From sequence record PQ821641: DNA of 40,091 nucleotides; one strand, given 5' to 3'. Below the pieces are notes generated by a model, which did not search any database, was not told where the DNA came from, and saw only the letters and a list, made by a program, of their open reading frames with translations. Origin of the DNA: Escherichia phage SD6. Positions 3,008-40,091 of the stretch are shown in pieces. Position 1 is the first letter of the stretch. Each line of letters begins with the position of its first letter. Both the position numbers and the translations under genes were made by a program.

Positions 3008-3014
3008 TTCTGAC

Positions 3015-10094: not shown

Positions 10095-10549
10095 TGACTA
10101 CCTGTAAAGACCTTGAAGTTGGAACACGTTACAGATTCTCAAAGAACACCCTGCTGAATAACCCCCAATTCACTGATGCTGTTTTCGAAAAGCGAGAAGA
10201 CCATAGCGTAATTGTGGAGAAGGGGTGGCATCCTGAGGATTACATCGGTGAGACTACCGGCTGGAATGGTCACGAGACCTACAGTGTAGAAGTTGTTGAA
10301 CATCCTCAAGTCCTGCCAGCCTCAAGCGTCCCTCCCGTCACCGTTAAACGTGAAGTCCTGACCATCAACAAGATTGGTGTAGGTCAGACGTTCATCGTCC
10401 ACGGTAAGCCTGACGAAGTGTACGTGAAGATTAGCAACTCTCACGTCTTCAACCATAAGTTGCTCCAGATGCACACGACTGACGCACATCGCTTCCAGTC
10501 ACATCTGAATCTGGTGGTAGTAGAGCTCGTTGTTTATAATGGAAAGTGA
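10091..10549 (+). CDS. Hypothetical protein (152 aa) inserted between endonuclease I and lysozyme
   Basis: Overlaps the endonuclease stop; no T7 counterpart at this locus; no recognisable family. Confidence 0.6.
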   Translation: MMTTCKDLEVGTRYRFSKNTLLNNPQFTDAVFEKREDHSVIVEKGWHPEDYIGETTGWNGHETYSVEVVEHPQVLPASSVPPVTVKREVLTINKIGVGQTFIVHGKPDEVYVKISNSHVFNHKLLQMHTTDAHRFQSHLNLVVVELVVYNGK

Positions 10550-10910
10550 CTGCATCGAGTGGGCTAAGAGTCGCAATAAGGATGGCTATGGTAGACGTAA
10601 ATTCCGTGGTCAATCTATGGGTGCTCATAGAGCAGCTTGGATAGAGACCAATGGTGCTATACCGGGAGGTCTTGTCGTAAGACACAAGTGTGATAACCGT
10701 GCATGCGTAAACATTGAGCACCTTGAGTTGGGGACTCAGGCAGAAAACATGATGGACTGCTCAGTACGCAGGACATTTAATTCAAAACTAACTGAAGATG
10801 ACGTTAAGGATATTCGCACCTCAAGCGAGACCCTTAAGTTTATGGCTGAAAAATACTCAGTAAGTGAGACAACCATAAGTCGAATCAGGAACCACAAGAG
10901 GTGGAAATAA
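10539..10910 (+). CDS. HNH homing endonuclease
   Basis: 123 aa from ATG 10539; HNH-type motif RHKCDNRACVNIEHLELGTQAENM; paralogous to the HNH at 29818. Confidence 0.85.
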   Translation: MESDCIEWAKSRNKDGYGRRKFRGQSMGAHRAAWIETNGAIPGGLVVRHKCDNRACVNIEHLELGTQAENMMDCSVRRTFNSKLTEDDVKDIRTSSETLKFMAEKYSVSETTISRIRNHKRWK

Positions 10911-26476: not shown

Positions 26477-26959
26477 ATGTATATTCGCAAGGCTACGGAA
26501 CCAGATGTCCACTACTTTCTGTGGCATCTTTCGGCAGATGATGTTAATGAGTGCAAAGCAGCCTATGGGTCAACCGTGGGTCTCTCTGAAAGACTGCTTA
26601 AGCATTTATCTCCGTCATCTGTGGTTTTAACAAACAGTGTAGGAGAAGTGTTTGCCTATGGTGGGAACCAAGGGGACAACGTATGGTTCTTGACTTCAGG
26701 TCTGGTACACAAGCTGAGACCTAAAGAGAAGCGAGAGTTCATAAAGCATATCTCTGAGTACAGGGACTTAATGTTAGACCAATACGGGACCATCTGGAAC
26801 TACGTGTGGTCAGGCAATAAGTCTCACATTAAATTCTTGAAGTTGCTTGGTGCTAAGTTCCATGATGATTGGACTATCAGCCAGGTAACTGGTGAGAGTT
26901 TTCAATTATTCACTATCTCTAAGGAGGACGTATGTGTGAACCAGTATCCATCGGTCTAG
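26477..26959 (+). CDS. Internal virion protein gp13-like
   Basis: 160 aa; assigned by synteny between gene 12 and gene 14. Confidence 0.7.
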   Translation: MYIRKATEPDVHYFLWHLSADDVNECKAAYGSTVGLSERLLKHLSPSSVVLTNSVGEVFAYGGNQGDNVWFLTSGLVHKLRPKEKREFIKHISEYRDLMLDQYGTIWNYVWSGNKSHIKFLKLLGAKFHDDWTISQVTGESFQLFTISKEDVCVNQYPSV

Positions 26960-29817: not shown

Positions 29818-30267
29818 ATGAAGAACGGGACAGCCAGTGAGAGACTGGCAGAACTGTCAGTAGCCGAAGAGTCTGGCTGTATCCGATTCACAGGCCACTT
29901 AGACGGAGAAGGATACGGAAGGATAATGGTGGCTAGGGTTAAGTATATGGCACATCGTCTCTCCTACTCCCTAAATAATGGGCCAATACCAGATGGCTAT
30001 GTTGTTAGGCATAAATGTGATAATCCATCATGCATAAATCCTGAACACCTTGAAGTAGGAACGCAGGCTGACAACATTGCAGATAAGGTTTCCAGAGGCC
30101 GACAGGCAAGAGGTAGTGGAGCAGGCAGAGCTATACTGACAGAGGAATCTGTTAGGGAAATACGCTCCAGTCCATTAAAAGTATCTGAGCTTTCCACCTT
30201 ATACGGGGTAAGCGTCGTTTCCATACGAAATATATTGAGGAGAAAGACATGGCAACACGTGGTGTAA
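29818..30267 (+). CDS. HNH homing endonuclease
   Basis: 149 aa; VVRHKCDNPSCINPEHLEVGTQADN; paralogous to the HNH at 10539; overlaps the gene 16 start by 19 nt. Confidence 0.85.
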   Translation: MKNGTASERLAELSVAEESGCIRFTGHLDGEGYGRIMVARVKYMAHRLSYSLNNGPIPDGYVVRHKCDNPSCINPEHLEVGTQADNIADKVSRGRQARGSGAGRAILTEESVREIRSSPLKVSELSTLYGVSVVSIRNILRRKTWQHVV

Positions 30268-33200: not shown

Positions 33201-34136
33201 TCTGACATCGTGGAGCATAGTCTTACTGGTAGTAAGCGTAAGTTCGATGACCGCTGGCTGAAGACCGCTGGTATCTCTGACGAGCAGTGGAAGGGTATTA
33301 AGTCCCTAATCCGTGAGTCAGTGACTCGTGGTCCAGACGGGAAGTACACCATCAAGGATAAGAAGGCGTTCAGTCAGGACCCAAGGGCTATGGACCTGTG
33401 GCGTATGGGTGACACCATCGCTGATGAAACGTTACTCCGCCCTCATAAGCTGTCCAACATGGACGCCAAGGCTTATGGCCCACTCGCTAAGACTGTCCTT
33501 CAGTTTAAGAACTTCGTCATCAAGTCCATCAATGGGCGAACCATGCGAACCTTCTACAACGCAACGAAGAACAACCGAGCGATGGACGCTGCCTTGTCCA
33601 CTGTGATGTCTATGGGTCTCGCTGGTATCTACTACATGGCTCAGGCGCACGTCAAGGCTTATGCTATGCAGGATGGTCGAGACCGTGATTACCTCAAGCA
33701 AGCTCTGGACCCGACGATGATTGGATATGCGGCTCTGTCCCGTAGCTCACATCTAGGTGGCCCACTTGGGGTCGCTAACATTCTGGGCGGCATCGCTGGG
33801 TATGAGGACACTAAGATGCTCCGCTCGTCTATCCTCCCTCGTTCACCTACAGAGAAGCCTGAACGTGCCATCTCGTATGGTGCGGCTACAAGTGACCCTG
33901 TGATGAATGTCGTAGGTAACTTCTTGGAGCAGGTTCCAGCTTTCGGCTATGCTGCTAACGTTGGTGCTTCGGCTTACAACTTGGCTGGCTACCTCAAGGC
34001 TGATACTCGTGTCAACGAGCGAGACTACATGACCGGGATGTATAACACGTTCCGTGAACTGGTCCCGAATGACCCGATTACCCAGAAGTTGCTGCTTGGA
34101 ACGTTTGAGGAGCAAGGTATCCACATCAAGGACTAA
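30249..34136 (+). CDS. Internal virion protein D (gene 16) with a non-canonical N-terminal domain
   Basis: 1295 aa; from about residue 180 collinear with T7 gp16 (GVDPLTYVP, RLEARETARN, SPTGMQSGASGK, ENPAMFG, GTYVPHVY, GLENNSFLEARNLFDSD, RVNGDIAIMAGTGKTT); the first ~130 aa (RNANPGNIR...RWAPPNEN) do not resemble the T7 N terminus as remembered. Confidence 0.95.
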   Translation: MATRGVRNANPGNIRKSKDQWEGAIGDDGEFVIFDSPESGVRALGKNLLSYGRQGYDSIEKIINRWAPPNENDTQAYIDSVVAATGIPATQSLDLSDPDTLSSLAQAISFHETGSRYDPEVYQQGVARALNGISPKTPPVSANVFDALTEGLKAKPKVDLGENLPTAAGLNIEGQAPEAPNESFGEMFYKATGETMQEREDRSTWFGFGAATEAEVKNSMVGVAIRAGQTEDSLDVIGDVFNPTRWNNHKWTREELDQIRNAGVLPQYYGVITGGSPQNLTELINLALENQKLDQEKAKAGTGAQLAAGVIGAGVDPLTYVPIAGQVGKGGKLVNKMFTVAAQSGALAGVSEMARTSVSGGDAHVAEAILGGALFGGGMTAIADGLGRALGRNTNEFAGPATRLEARETARNVDGQDLSRLPIQEGEQTFSHQGVKFADVPNEPGSVRLEDGSILIGENPLNPKTRQVFDEVIEPERAAAGVNLGGLTEIGLKLLRSENPEIRGVAADLVRSPTGMQSGASGKIGTTASDVFERLRAVDHRFYNDIDDAVTEALKDPYFQTAFWRDSGAFRQDIYQRVSMAIEDGSGNLKAELTPGELKVYDLLKNQFDAKREMMENPAMFGRPDAQSIFPGSRFKGTYVPHVYSKQMKELYIKELGSPEALQEAIKKSWLTSYASRPEVKKRVDEALLEADPTLTPEGLAAAVDKYANDKAYGISHTEQFERSSVMEENINGLVGLENNSFLEARNLFDSDMSIVLPNGQTFSVNNLREWDMDKIVPAYNRRVNGDIAIMAGTGKTTKEMKDLVETMMNKAGDDGKLKGEVSTLRDTLKILTGRARRDGADDAAFATVMRTMTDLSFFAKNAYMGVQNLTEIGGMLARGNVRAMLHGVPMFRDLAFRNKKVGASEIKDLHNVIFGKELDDSIRPSKQDVIDRLRAYSSLSKPTATALGTAKYYTGELAVRSPFTKVLNGTTNYLLDAGRQGFLSDIVEHSLTGSKRKFDDRWLKTAGISDEQWKGIKSLIRESVTRGPDGKYTIKDKKAFSQDPRAMDLWRMGDTIADETLLRPHKLSNMDAKAYGPLAKTVLQFKNFVIKSINGRTMRTFYNATKNNRAMDAALSTVMSMGLAGIYYMAQAHVKAYAMQDGRDRDYLKQALDPTMIGYAALSRSSHLGGPLGVANILGGIAGYEDTKMLRSSILPRSPTEKPERAISYGAATSDPVMNVVGNFLEQVPAFGYAANVGASAYNLAGYLKADTRVNERDYMTGMYNTFRELVPNDPITQKLLLGTFEEQGIHIKD

Positions 34137-34155
34137 ACTATCACTATAGGAAACG
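34133..34155 (+). promoter_or_regulatory. Phage promoter (phi17-like)
   Basis: CTAAACTATCACTATAGGAAACG overlapping the gene 16 stop. Confidence 0.7.
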
Positions 34156-34200
34156 GGAGGCGCTACCATATGTCTCCCTTTAAATCACAAAGGAGGCATA

Positions 34201-36681
34201 ATGTCCACGATTACACAATTCCCTTCAGGAAACACTCAGTACAGGATTGAGTTCGACTACCTAGCCAGAACGTTTGTTGTTGTTACGCTGGTGAATAGCT
34301 CTAACCCTACCATGAACCGTGTACTTGAAGTGGGTCGAGATTACCGATTCCTTAATCCAACGATGATTGAGATGTTGGTTGACCAATCGGGTTTCGACAT
34401 CGTTCGTATTCACCGTCAGACTGGAACTGACTTAGTGGTAGACTTCAGGAATGGCTCAGTGTTGACAGCTAGTGACCTGACCAATTCAGAGCTTCAGGCT
34501 ATCCATATTGCAGAAGAAGGTCGAGACCAAACTGTTGACTTAGCGAAGGAATATGCAGATGCTGCTGGTAGCTCTGCTGGCAACGCTAAGGATAGCGCGG
34601 ACGAAGCACGACGAATCGCTGAGAGTATCAGGATCGCCGGTCTAATTGGCTATATTACCCGTCGCTCCTTCGAGAAAGGCTTCAACGTTACAACATGGAG
34701 CGAGGTCCTGCTGTGGGAAGCGGATGGTAGCTATTACCGCTGGGATGGTACACTTCCAAAGAATGTTCCTGCGGGTTCAACTCCAGATAGCACTGGTGGG
34801 GTTAAATTAGGTGCGTGGGTTAATGTTGGAGATGCCGCATTACGATCACAAATATCAAATCCTGACGGGGCTACTTTATATCCAGAATTACAAAGGGCCA
34901 GATGGCGTGATGTAGGTGATATACGAGGTTGGAACCTGAGGGGCGATGGCTCTGATGAAGCCGTTTTACTACAGCAAGTAATCAATACTGGAAATGTATT
35001 CATACCTAAAGGAATGATTATAAGCCACTCAACTGTAACAATTCCAAAGGGTACACAAATAAAACTTGCAGATGGAGCTGCTCTCAGGTCTTTGGTAAAA
35101 GATGCGCTTTCATTTGAAAAAGATGAAATGTTCAAATTGGCTTCCTCGGCGGCATCTGGAACCACAACCTTGACACTGGCATCAGCCCCAACTTACACAA
35201 ATTTTGACAAAGTAATGATTACGAGGTCGGAAGACACCAGTGACAGTTGGTATATCGCGAATGCCCAAAATCCAGACCAGTTAGGATACCAAGGTGAGGT
35301 TTTCCGCGTTCTGAGCATAGATGGAGCAACTATAACGTTGGCATCCCCAGTGCCATGGGAGCTAACAGTGGCGAATGCAGAGGTTCGAATTATTAAAGGA
35401 CCAACAACAAAAATAACCGGAGGAAATCTAATAAACGGGGCGACTGGCTCAAACTATATGTATCAGTCAAAAGGCGCCTCATTGATTGAGTTTGAGGGTA
35501 CTTCCTTCGATTACAACGGCAATGGTGGCAGTCGCCATGACACCTCCTACGGCATCAAATATTCTGGTACTCGACACAAAAATAGGGTCGGTAACGGGAA
35601 CGTATTTCTTGGGTATGGGTCAGTAGAGTGTACTATTGAAGGAACAGAGCAGAATGGTGGTGCAGGTGGAGATGCTCAGATCATTGTTTACGCTGGATGT
35701 AGAAACATAGTTTCTAAAGGTAATAAATGCTTCCCTGTCGCATCAGAAGCCGGAGTTTACATTGGTGCGAAGTGCATAGGCGGGGCTTCCGTTTCAGACC
35801 ATATTAAAGGCGGTAAATACGGGTTTATTTCAGCATTCGGCGTACAAAAATTTTCCGTCGATAAACCGGTGTTACTCGACCAGTTGAAAGCCGCTATATT
35901 CGCTGAGCAATGTCAAAATTTTGAGGTTGAATCGCCTGTAATCCGTTTTATTAAAACAGGACAACAGACTGTAGCGGCTATCCTGCTCAAAGATTCAGAT
36001 TCTTACGTTATTGACTGTAATATTCCTATCGATACCGGGGATGACGGCTACATCGTTAGCTCATATAGTTCGCCAGCGTATAACACTGTAGCAAGGAAAG
36101 GCATAAGCCTGAGAGCTTCAGGGAAAGGAAGTATTAACCTAAGCTCAGCGATGGTTAATTTCTCGTTAGTTGGCTGTGAAGTTACCGGGGATATAACGCT
36201 GTACAACGGGGATATAGGTTCGTCCGACGGCTTTATTAGTAATAATCGATGCCGATATATGGTTCTGCACTCACTTCAGAAGAGTGAGATTACTGATACG
36301 ACAATTACAGGAAACCAAAATGGATATGGAATACGACTGAGCGGGAACTCTAGATGGAACAATATCAGACGCAGCAAAATCAGTGGTGTAACCACAGCGT
36401 TCTTTGTTAACCCAGCACCCGCAAATATATACACGAATGCGCTTCATGAGGATAACATGATAGATTACTCAACAGTAACCACATTCGTATCATCGCCGAC
36501 TGGAACAACCACTCCAGCGACGGGCTTGTTAAACCCTGCACCGGTGAGGAACTTTTTTCTACCATCTACAGGTTGGCAAGATGCACCCACAACCAAGCGA
36601 ACGATTAGCGGCTGGAGGCATAAAGGCACAAATACCGGTGTGGCGACTGATTGGTTTACTATAGCTATCAATGAAGCATGA
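34201..36681 (+). CDS. Tail spike protein with a T7 gp17-type N-terminal anchor and a putative beta-helix depolymerase C-terminal part
   Basis: 826 aa; residues 1 to ~150 match T7 gp17 (FDYLAR.FVVVTL, DYRF, LVDF.NGS.L.A.DL, HIAEE.RD); the remainder is Gly/Asn/Ser/Thr-rich and repetitive, and the encoding DNA looks AT-richer by eye. Confidence 0.9.
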   Translation: MSTITQFPSGNTQYRIEFDYLARTFVVVTLVNSSNPTMNRVLEVGRDYRFLNPTMIEMLVDQSGFDIVRIHRQTGTDLVVDFRNGSVLTASDLTNSELQAIHIAEEGRDQTVDLAKEYADAAGSSAGNAKDSADEARRIAESIRIAGLIGYITRRSFEKGFNVTTWSEVLLWEADGSYYRWDGTLPKNVPAGSTPDSTGGVKLGAWVNVGDAALRSQISNPDGATLYPELQRARWRDVGDIRGWNLRGDGSDEAVLLQQVINTGNVFIPKGMIISHSTVTIPKGTQIKLADGAALRSLVKDALSFEKDEMFKLASSAASGTTTLTLASAPTYTNFDKVMITRSEDTSDSWYIANAQNPDQLGYQGEVFRVLSIDGATITLASPVPWELTVANAEVRIIKGPTTKITGGNLINGATGSNYMYQSKGASLIEFEGTSFDYNGNGGSRHDTSYGIKYSGTRHKNRVGNGNVFLGYGSVECTIEGTEQNGGAGGDAQIIVYAGCRNIVSKGNKCFPVASEAGVYIGAKCIGGASVSDHIKGGKYGFISAFGVQKFSVDKPVLLDQLKAAIFAEQCQNFEVESPVIRFIKTGQQTVAAILLKDSDSYVIDCNIPIDTGDDGYIVSSYSSPAYNTVARKGISLRASGKGSINLSSAMVNFSLVGCEVTGDITLYNGDIGSSDGFISNNRCRYMVLHSLQKSEITDTTITGNQNGYGIRLSGNSRWNNIRRSKISGVTTAFFVNPAPANIYTNALHEDNMIDYSTVTTFVSSPTGTTTPATGLLNPAPVRNFFLPSTGWQDAPTTKRTISGWRHKGTNTGVATDWFTIAINEA

Positions 36682-36806
36682 TTTGATGCATAGTCATAAC
36701 CTTGTTAGTTTCATCAGAAGGGTATTGAATCGTCGAAGTCCATCTGAGGCTAACTGTAGGGTAACAGCTTTGGGTCACGGACGACCCGCTTTAAACTGGA
36801 GGTTTT

Positions 36807-37001
36807 ATGATTGAGTTAGACTTCAAGAATGAGGTCCTTAAAGCCTCTCCTATCGTCGGGACCGCTGCGGCTGATGGTGCCAGTCGGTTCTTCTTCGGAC
36901 TTACACTGAACGAATGGTTCTACGTTGCAGCTATAGCGTACACCGTTGTCCAGATTGGTGTGCTAGTCTACAAAACGATTAAAGGAGGTGGTAAAACATG
37001 A
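36807..37001 (+). CDS. Class II holin (gene 17.5)
   Basis: 64 aa; KA.PIVGT..AD...R.FFGL.LNEWFYVAAIAYTVVQIG nearly identical to T7 gp17.5. Confidence 0.85.
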   Translation: MIELDFKNEVLKASPIVGTAAADGASRFFFGLTLNEWFYVAAIAYTVVQIGVLVYKTIKGGGKT

Positions 37002-37812: not shown

Positions 37813-39572
37813 GTAAAGACTTAGTGGCGCGTCAGGCGCTAATGACAGCACGTATGAAGGCAGACTTCGTGTTCTTCCTGTTCGTCCTGTGGAAAGCCTT
37901 GTCACTCCCAGTCCCGACTCGCTGTCAGATTGACATGGCGAAGAAACTATCGGCTGGGGACAACAGGCGTTTCATCTTACAGGCGTTCCGTGGTATCGGG
38001 AAGTCCTTCATTACGTGTGCATTCGTGGTCTGGAAACTATGGAACAACCCAGACTTGAAGTTCATGATTGTGTCGGCCTCAAAGGAACGAGCCGATGCTA
38101 ACTCCATATTCATCAAGCGAATCATCGACCTCATGCCTCAGCTTCAGGAACTCAAACCTAAGCAGGGACAACGAGATGCGGTTATCAGCTTCGACGTTGG
38201 ACCAGCCAAGCCGGACCACTCACCTTCGGTTAAGTCCGTTGGTATCACTGGTCAGTTGACTGGTAGTCGTGCTGACATCCTGATTGCCGATGACGTAGAG
38301 GTTCCTAACAACTCAGCGACTCAGGCTGCACGAGACCGTCTGTCAGAGCTTGTGAAAGAGTTCGACGCTATCCTGAAGCCGGGAGGTACAATAATCTATC
38401 TGGGTACTCCTCAGAACGAGATGACCCTGTATCGTGAGCTGGAAGGTCGTGGGTACACCACTACTATCTGGCCCGCTCGTTATCCACGCGACAGGAAGGA
38501 CTGGCAGTCTTACGGCGACCGTCTGGCTCCTATGCTTCAGGCAGAGCTGGAAGAGGACCCTGAGTCATTCTACTGGCGTCCGACCGACGAAGTCCGCTTC
38601 GATGATACTGACCTGAAGGAACGTGAGCTGTCCTACGGTAAAGCTGGCTTCGCTCTACAGTTCATGCTTAACCCGAACCTGAGTGATGCCGAGAAGTACC
38701 CTCTGAAGCTCCGTGACCTTATCGTAGCAGACTTGGACCCAGCGTCCAGCCCAATGGTCTACCAATGGTTGCCAAACCCTCAGAACAAGCGTGAGGACGT
38801 TCCTAACGTTGGACTCATGGGTGACTCATACCACACGTATCAGACTGTAGGTTCTGCCTTCAGTTCGTACACCCAGAAGATTCTGGTCATTGACCCTAGT
38901 GGTCGTGGTAAGGATGAAACTGGTTATGCTGTACTGTATCAGCTAAACGGCTACATCTTCGCTATGGAAGTTGGTGGTATGCGTGGGGGTTATGAAGACT
39001 CTACGCTGGAAGCCTTGGCTAAGATCGGTCGTAAGTGGAAGGTCAACGAGTACGTCATTGAAGGTAACTTCGGTGATGGTATGTACCTTGAGTTATTCAA
39101 GCCTGTAGCTGCCCGTATTCATCCTGCTGCTGTAACTGAAGTGAAGAGTAAGGGTCAGAAAGAACTCCGCATCTGTGACGTTCTGGAGCCTATCATGGGG
39201 TCTCACAGACTTATCGTTAACGCTGCTGCTATCGTCCAAGACTACCAGTCAGCCTCTGATAAGGATGGTGTTCGTAACCCTATCTACTCTCTCTTCTACC
39301 AGATGACACGTATATCTCGTGAACGTGGGGCCTTGGCACACGATGACCGACTTGATGCGCTGGCTATCGGTGTACAGTTCTTCGTTGAGTCTATGGCTAA
39401 GGATGCCAACAAAGGCGAACGTGAAGTCACTGAGGAGTGGCTGGAGGAACAGATGGAGAACCCACGGAAAGGATTCGAGTCCATCCACACTGAGTTCTGG
39501 GACAATGGGGTCCGGGTAACTCACGATACGGACGACGAGCTTGGGCTAGGGTCATACGTTACGTTTCACTAG
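37809..39572 (+). CDS. Terminase large subunit (gene 19)
   Basis: 587 aa, collinear with T7 gp19 ([78 protein letters not shown]); TTG start with AAGGAGGTG about 5 nt upstream. Confidence 0.95.
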
Positions 39573-39667
39573 CTGAATGAATAACTATAGGTGAAAGCTG
39601 CATGAATACGCAGTTAGTAACCTATGGTTACTACCAGTCTAACCTACTGTTTTACAAGGAGTTTGGA

Positions 39668-39690
39668 CTTAACTATCACTATAGGGAAGA
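39668..39690 (+). promoter_or_regulatory. Phage promoter near the right end (phiOR-like)
   Basis: CTTAACTATCACTATAGGGAAGA downstream of the terminase gene. Confidence 0.65.
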
Positions 39691-39869
39691 CCCCAGGTTA
39701 CTTATAGTATTACTGTAGTGAATATACATATGCAGACTTTATGCAATACCTTAGGAGGCAGACTCCGAGTTCTTACCTAAGGCTTGCACCGATGGAAGGA
39801 GGGTGATATTAATCATAATCCCTCCAATACAGATAGTCACCGACCATAGATACAGGAGGTATGTAGCAT

Positions 39870-40028
39870 ATGGCAAAGACCAAAGCTGTGCTTAAAGCTC
39901 TGGCGACCAATCGAGCTACATACAGGTTTCTTGCTGCTGTTCTACTTGCTGCTGGCGTTACTGCTGGAAGTCAGTGGGTCGGGTGGGTCGAGACTCTCGT
40001 ATGTTCTCTGGTCTCTCAGTGTAATTAA
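39870..40028 (+). CDS. Hypothetical small membrane protein (52 aa, gene 19.5 position)
   Basis: GGAGG about 10 nt upstream of the ATG; hydrophobic FLAAVLLAAGVTAG; last ORF before the right end. Confidence 0.4.
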   Translation: MAKTKAVLKALATNRATYRFLAAVLLAAGVTAGSQWVGWVETLVCSLVSQCN

Positions 40029-40091
40029 CGCAATCATGGTAACGATTAATGAGCGGAAGACCTAAGGTCAGTTCATAGCTGACGCTACTCT

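Follow-up and report, generated by a model that had tools for sequence, protein, structure and literature searches.

A horizontally acquired, predicted beta-helix receptor-binding module in the tailspike of the Kayfunavirus Escherichia phage SD6

Phage tailspikes that combine a genus-conserved N-terminal anchor with a receptor-binding domain (RBD) exchanged across phage families, with conserved motifs at the junctions on either side of the RBD, have been described by Pas et al. 2023 (PMC10408124) and Sørensen et al. 2023 (PMC10791037), and RBD exchange is a well-documented route for phage host-range change. The spike groups of P22-like phages, Agtrevirus, and Gamaleyavirus are known to target O-antigens (PMC10408124, PMC10791037), and for LKA1 gp49, in which a beta-helix is combined with an inserted beta-barrel and a C-terminal domain, O-antigen lyase activity has been proven experimentally (PMC5701251). 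Here we analyzed the tailspike gene of Escherichia phage SD6 (sequence record PQ821641), located at positions 34201-36681 on the + strand of a stretch of 40,091 nucleotides (nt), which was examined at its full length and is referred to as the window. According to the open reading frame (ORF) list and to the synteny with the Kayfunaviruses ZG49 and phiHAO1-1, the gene is one ORF of 826 amino acids (aa). In the explanation that we hold, taken as a whole, to be probable, its product is the single tailspike, i.e., the receptor-binding protein (RBP), of a Kayfunavirus, presumably trimeric like its solved relatives. The receptor-binding module of this protein (aa 245-826, positions 34933-36681, + strand, 44.3% GC) was acquired by recombination from unrelated phages.

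Homology to the sister phages ZG49 and phiHAO1-1 stops at position 34932 and returns at 36761 with 99% identity (blastn). The swapped cassette consequently spans 34933-36760, with its junction with the backbone at 34932/34933; the sister phages hold unrelated sequence between these positions, and the cassette replaces an endosialidase-type module. A siphovirus (~44 kb) matched the window with 92.8% nt identity over 34732-36691 and additionally over 36704-36751 in the 3' flank, and a myovirus (~86 kb) with 94.0% nt identity over 34879-36691. The loss of homology to the sisters between 34932 and 36761, combined with the 93-94% nt match to the tailspike modules of the siphovirus and the myovirus, shows that the module was acquired horizontally, as supposed in a preliminary description of this DNA that a model had made from the letters alone.

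Both ends of the cassette could be mapped. At the 5' side, a patch at 34879-34932 (+ strand), delimited by blastn ends, base-by-base alignment, and peptide comparison, encodes YPELQRARWRDVGDIRGW (aa 227-244) and is common to Kayfunaviruses, the 44-kb siphovirus, and the 86-kb myovirus. Since three lineages overlap there, it is likely the site of a homologous crossover, and its position agrees with that of "motif 1" in PMC10408124. At the 3' side, a donor-derived non-coding remnant extends over 36682-36760 (+ strand), matching the region downstream of the siphovirus gene (blastn, flanks judged by eye) and lacking ~150 nt of donor flank including the donor terminator hairpin. The module thus entered by recombination, with the 5' crossover in the short patch YPELQxARWRDxGDVRGW, common to unrelated lytic phages, and the 3' crossover in the non-coding stretch beyond the tailspike stop codon, and the cassette 34933-36760 has retained its own GC content of ~44%.

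Upstream of the 5' junction, DNA identity to 162 phage records extends at most to nt 732 of the gene, equivalent to aa 244. The domain content of this N-terminal part starts with a T7 gp17-type tail-attachment domain (~aa 1-130, 34201-34590, + strand), recognized by PF03906 at aa 10-116 (E 6.7e-16, 58.8 bits vs. a gathering cutoff of 25.2) and by the T7 gp17 chains in the PDB, of which 7boz matches aa 6-116 (E 6e-16) and 8dsp as well as 8e4g reach E values of about 1e-16. A putative Ala/Asp/Glu-rich helical neck (~aa 104-150, 34510-34650, + strand) gave only weak Alanine_zipper and LEA_4 matches and lies within the part aligned to PDB 9vvr, a solved 843-aa Kayfunavirus-type spike aligning near-identically to aa 1-264. 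It leads to a genus-conserved Tail_spike_N domain of the TSP1/gp66 type (~aa 151-226, 34651-34878, + strand), which is matched by PF18668 at aa 155-211 (E 8.4e-20, 71.1 bits vs. a cutoff of 25) and by the N-domains of CBA120 TSP1/3/4 in the PDB. Thereby, aa 1-244 would act as a genus-conserved adaptor, the gp17-type domain plugging into the tail and being followed by the neck and Tail_spike_N. The preliminary description had correctly likened the N-terminus to the T7 gp17 tail-attachment domain. It put the conserved part at ~150 residues instead of 244, thus missing the neck and the Tail_spike_N domain, and its start at 34650 and change at ~34800 are neither the start of the gene (34201) nor the junction.

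To describe the fold of the module, an AlphaFold2 model was calculated for the monomer of aa 240-826 from an alignment of five homologs, yielding a pLDDT of 78.9 and a pTM of 0.77 for a nearly all-beta structure of short strands. The alignment is shallow, because two word-indexed searches covering 5.8 billion proteins yielded one and the same set of six relatives. Foldseek comparison of the model with the PDB placed phage beta-helix spikes on top, i.e., phi297 gp61, AP22 gp54, LKA1 gp49, Klebsiella K1 lyase, KP34p57, HK620, and CBA120 TSP1. In the model, the module adopts a right-handed parallel beta-helix fold, strongly similar to the solved members, which is interrupted by a putative inserted domain and completed by a conserved C-terminal part; a fibrous shaft is excluded, in agreement with the earlier expectation of a beta-helix instead of a fibre shaft. 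On the sequence level, LKA1 gp49 (4ru4_A) is recovered by a profile built from 18 members of the family, with an E value of 5.7e-9 over profile positions 157-410, and distant family members match the Pfam families Beta_helix, Pect-lyase, and NosD, with three members each for PF13229 and PF12708.

Within the module, the most conserved segment of the family is the motif R-x2-D-x-SD-x-WYIAN-x2-NP-x3-GY-x2-E-x-F (aa 342-368, 35224-35304, + strand), recognized by its invariant columns. In the 4ru4 profile alignment it falls on the inserted beta-barrel region of LKA1 gp49, and it is modelled with a pLDDT of 35-55 despite its invariance; the model shows long strands at its residues 47-175, part of them at low pLDDT, where the motif is aligned to the gp49 insertion region. 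On the DNA level, 35230-35297, encoding DxSDxWYIANxxNP, is the sole part of the first half of the module that can be aligned (76-78%) with the 59%-identical genes of PC3 and nithesis. A second stretch (35614-35799, + strand) contains Y472, D491, K524, and D533, the only polar residues that stay unchanged in every one of the 18 relatives, whose identity falls to 18-22%, and likewise in a 13-sequence alignment. Judged from this conservation, they are candidate active-site or substrate-groove residues.

Furthermore, segment-wise identities and blastn revealed a breakpoint inside the module at ~aa 457 (35569, + strand), beyond which the spikes of P22-like prophages share 91.5% nt and ~87-89% aa identity with the window, compared with only 43-53% aa identity before it. 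The C-terminal sub-module (aa 721-826, 36361-36678, + strand) retains 78-80% identity even with the version of PC3, which is only 42-67% identical elsewhere, and blastn aligned 36328-36662 at 78.6%. Its last ~50 aa are of low confidence in the monomer model, and it is probably a trimerisation or folding element.

Relatives of the donor type occur on seven different phage backbones. Besides the siphovirus and the myovirus, P22-like E. coli prophages carry a 73% aa identical module behind a PF09008 head-binding domain, Agtrevirus PC3/PH4/RPN242/A221 and Gamaleyavirus nithesis each carry one at 59% aa identity, and a 36-kb podovirus encodes a homolog (P0006) at 33% identity; the tailspike of Acinetobacter phage APK20 is related at 30.6% identity over about 220 aa. 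The family is rare, being represented by six clusters in 5.8 billion proteins and by 21 clusters among 1.84 billion representative proteins. No relative was found in 185,579 species-representative genomes (GTDB), IMG/VR contained one distant match at 27% identity, and, of 5,426 complete E. coli genomes, a single one, that of strain 2017.15.02CC, harbours a partial copy. In a Megablast comparison with 50,697 phage records, no record spanned the module; the phage of the window and any closely similar module are thus absent from this collection. Two observations concern the surroundings of these relatives. A type I Zorya system (zorA1-B1-C-D; L009 18828-25113) is located ~6 kb from a P22-like prophage with a related tailspike. 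In the 36-kb podovirus, a gene combining Acyl_transf_3 and SGNH (L008 12564-14408) is convergent to and adjoins P0006; its domain make-up is that of O-antigen acetyltransferases, and a role in serotype conversion is possible.

Considering its fold neighbours and relatives, the module would bind and most likely cleave an E. coli surface polysaccharide, allowing the phage to reach the outer membrane, and would thereby set the host range. As target, an O-antigen is more probable than a capsule, since the carrier groups are documented as O-antigen-targeting and the closest solved relative cleaves O-antigen. A lyase is slightly favoured over a hydrolase chemistry, the fold neighbours including lyases and hydrolases alike.

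That the module is instead a capsule (K-antigen) depolymerase and the host encapsulated is unlikely, though a number of observations point that way. K1F and phiHAO1-1 carry capsule-specific endosialidases at the same gene position, and capsule targeting by Kayfunaviruses such as K1F leaves room for a K-antigen. Many of the top structural neighbours are capsule depolymerases, i.e., K1 lyase 7w1c, K5 lyase 2x3h, AP22 gp54, KP34p57, and K64-1 S2-4, the APK20 tailspike is similar, and RBP subtypes possibly targeting K-antigens are mentioned in PMC10408124. However, fold likeness is unable to tell capsule from O-antigen enzymes, and all close relatives belong to groups with O-antigen-specific spikes (P22-like prophages, Agtrevirus, Gamaleyavirus). 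The sole solved protein related by sequence is an O-antigen lyase, and P0006 is neighboured by the presumed O-antigen acetylase gene. Consequently, an encapsulated host, which the preliminary description regarded as implied, does not follow from the module.

With regard to the serogroup, an O143-family O-antigen is a weak lead, given by the lysogen E. coli 2017.15.02CC. Its prophage tailspike is 97.8% identical to P0004, and its galF-gnd cluster contains annotated O143 family wzx/wzy together with genes for an aminotransferase, a HAD hydrolase, and an ATP-grasp amidoligase. The O143 and S. boydii 8 O-antigens presumably contain an amidated uronic acid, which would suit a lyase. The cluster (L017, NZ_AP027818.1 1,880,574-1,895,922) also has an integrase-core pseudogene inside, and 2017.15.02CC may make an incomplete O-antigen. 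Taking this lead further, the module could belong to a small LKA1 gp49-like family of polysaccharide lyases, marked by the D-x-SD-x-WYIAN-x2-NP motif and the invariant Y/D/K/D. A phage spike specificity for the O143 / Shigella boydii 8-type O-antigen, carried by enteroinvasive E. coli, would then be recognised for the first time, in the window phage as well as in its counterparts among the P22-like phages, Agtrevirus, and Gamaleyavirus, and the breakpoint at ~aa 457 would reflect re-assortment of specificity within one beta-helix. We consider this combined proposal improbable as it stands.

Several points have to be weighed against an O-antigen-cleaving beta-helix. The O143 lead is weak because it comes from a single lysogen in which wzy is frameshifted and whose tailspike shares just 43-53% identity with the window protein in the first third of the module (aa 245-455). 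Only five sequences went into the model, which represents a monomer and in which the most conserved motif (aa 346-362) is of low confidence. The window protein gave no match to the Pfam beta-helix and lyase families, including PF13229 and PF12708, even at E<=1, and a single-sequence search with aa 245-826 reached no PDB chain. Finally, the profile alignment to LKA1 gp49 ends before the proposed catalytic Asp497/His499.

Some of these points would equally suit a beta-helix acting as a non-catalytic, binding-only adhesin: no Pfam catalytic family was matched, the alignment did not extend to the catalytic residues of LKA1 gp49, and the structural neighbours include non-enzymatic beta-helices, e.g., those of the PfbA adhesin and the Vag8 autotransporter. 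Such a role is nevertheless very improbable, considering that Y472, D491, K524, and D533 are conserved in the 18 relatives as for an active site, and that most of the best-scoring phage spikes are titled lyases, depolymerases, or glycoside hydrolases in the PDB.

In respect to base composition, 34801-36681 has a GC content of 44.3% compared with 49.8% for the window, placing it in the lowest 0.4% of windows of the same length; the impression of AT-richer DNA from ~34800 onward was thus accurate, and the GC scan is not uniform. An unbiased two-boundary scan located the strongest GC outlier of the whole window at 34801-36830 (log-likelihood ratio, LLR, 13.9), the 3' part of the gene being at 44.1% vs. 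50.1% GC. A second AT-rich outlier lies in the early region at 371-1510 (42.9% GC, LLR 11.1). The GC content at third codon positions (GC3) is 0.396 for the module and 0.544±0.048 for the 27 other genes of the window, i.e., ~3 standard deviations (SD) lower, while at second positions (GC2) the module is higher (0.467 vs. 0.403). Because GC2 is higher while GC3 is lower, the shift occurs at synonymous sites and is not caused by amino-acid content. The anchor GC3 is low as well (0.418); therefore, the contrast within the gene is smaller than that between the gene and the genome. Across E. coli-phage backbones of 38-50% GC, the module stays at 43-45%. At the protein level, G, N, S, and T account for 36.1% of aa 245-826 and 24.1% of the remaining proteome (+3.9 SD), supporting the preliminary description of a Gly/Asn/Ser/Thr-rich region. 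Its repetitive character, also claimed there, is found only in the structure, since the module has neither internal BLASTP repeats nor tandem DNA repeats. The idea that the low GC arose without transfer, either from the amino-acid composition or through selection acting on a long-resident gene, is effectively refuted: although the module is rich in G/N/S/T/I/K and the anchor GC3 is low too, GC2 lies above and GC3 3 SD below the other genes, the sisters are unrelated across 34933-36760, unrelated phages hold the module at 93-94% nt identity and ~45% GC even on a 38% backbone, and donor-type 3' non-coding DNA travelled with it.

The window genome is T7-like and belongs to the genus Kayfunavirus (K1F-like), and many E. 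coli Kayfunaviruses match its structural genes at 93-95% nt identity across 19 kb. Over 19 kb, it is also 93.8% nt identical to MT350292.1 "Enterococcus phage EFA-1", the host label of which looks doubtful. Judged by the annotated relatives ZG49 and phiHAO1-1, the tailspike ORF occupies the T7 gene-17 position, i.e., after gp16 (the large internal virion protein) and before the holin, which was identified by PF10746 at 36807-37001, 3' of the tailspike gene. In ZG49, the RBP is split into two adjoining ORFs of 686 and 386 aa (L013 3501-6741).

The tailspike gene is predicted to be driven by a phage-RNA-polymerase promoter, CTAAACTATCACTATAGGAA (34133-34152, + strand), which overlaps the gp16 stop codon, and a strong ribosome-binding site, AAGGAGG (34191-34197, + strand), is read just 5' of the ATG at 34201. 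A consensus scan for the T7-type promoter CTAAACTATCACTATAGGRA (<=3 mismatches) yielded 11 + strand copies in the window, at 3014, 6079, 7785, 8882, 11607, 18067, 20889, 21877, 26426, 34133, and 39668, with 0 expected by chance. Within 34000-37000 there was no excess of sigma-70 promoters or intrinsic terminators, and no terminator-like site was found between the tailspike stop codon and the start of the holin gene.

Elsewhere in the window, two ORFs of HNH_3 homing endonucleases were identified at 10539-10910 and 29818-30267 (Pfam E 1e-16 and 6e-15), the second overlapping the start of gp16 (30249) by 19 nt. Their GC3 values of 0.435 and 0.407 are the lowest of the genome after the tailspike, and both are probably mobile insertions. 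An Endonuclease_7 gene at 26520-26927 was rejected, its coordinates being out of frame; the actual ORF there is gp13. T7-like genomes usually carry a direct terminal repeat; none was detected in a comparison of positions 1-600 with 39492-40091, and the window may be devoid of one repeat copy or begin elsewhere in the genome.

The tailspike would decide which E. coli strains the window phage infects, and the window illustrates cassette exchange cleanly, its two junctions being located to the base and an additional breakpoint lying within the beta-helix. The added RBD subtype extends the catalogue used for host-range prediction, the design of phage cocktails, the engineering of chimeric tailspikes and tailocins, and serogroup diagnostics. 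What is new here is limited to an RBD subtype without a serogroup in PMC10408124 and its unusually broad set of carrier backbones; the general understanding is unchanged, because the anchor, the swapped beta-helix RBD, and the junction motifs have already been published.

Compared with the spikes of Pas et al. and Sørensen et al., the window protein shows the same organization of a conserved N-terminal anchor and an exchangeable C-terminal beta-helix RBD in the same groups, i.e., Kayfuna- and Gamaleyaviruses, Ackermannviridae, and P22-like prophages. Like the cassettes in PMC10408124, its RBD is common to several genera and has its junctions at the patch ending the anchor and in downstream non-coding DNA. 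In contrast, that study assigns serogroups to 15 RBD subtypes, none of which is the subtype found here, and its main text does not contain O143. The subtype is also found on the ~44-kb siphovirus and the ~86-kb myovirus, both from metagenomes, and the window is devoid of the donor's downstream terminator hairpin.

The solved Pseudomonas proteins LKA1 gp49 and phi297 gp61 (4ru4, 4ru5) share 9-13% identity with the module in structural alignments and serve a different host and polysaccharide. The proposed catalytic Asp497/His499 of gp49, along with Arg329 and Arg459, lie beyond the end of the profile alignment, whereas the family of the module has its own invariants Y472, D491, K524, and D533. 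The model covers the C-terminal domain in the window protein only at low confidence and thus does not support a discoidin-like domain there. With the K1F-type endosialidase (phiHAO1-1 gp45), the window gene shares its position, promoter context, and the N-terminal 244 aa (~90% nt identity up to 34932), while the receptor-binding part is wholly unrelated and the gene measures 2481 nt instead of 3195 nt; Pfam matched neither an endosialidase domain nor a Peptidase_S74 chaperone in the window protein. In spikes of the P22/HK620/Sf6 type, a beta-helix binds O-antigen, and it is the P22-like E. coli prophages that carry the 73% version of the module described here.

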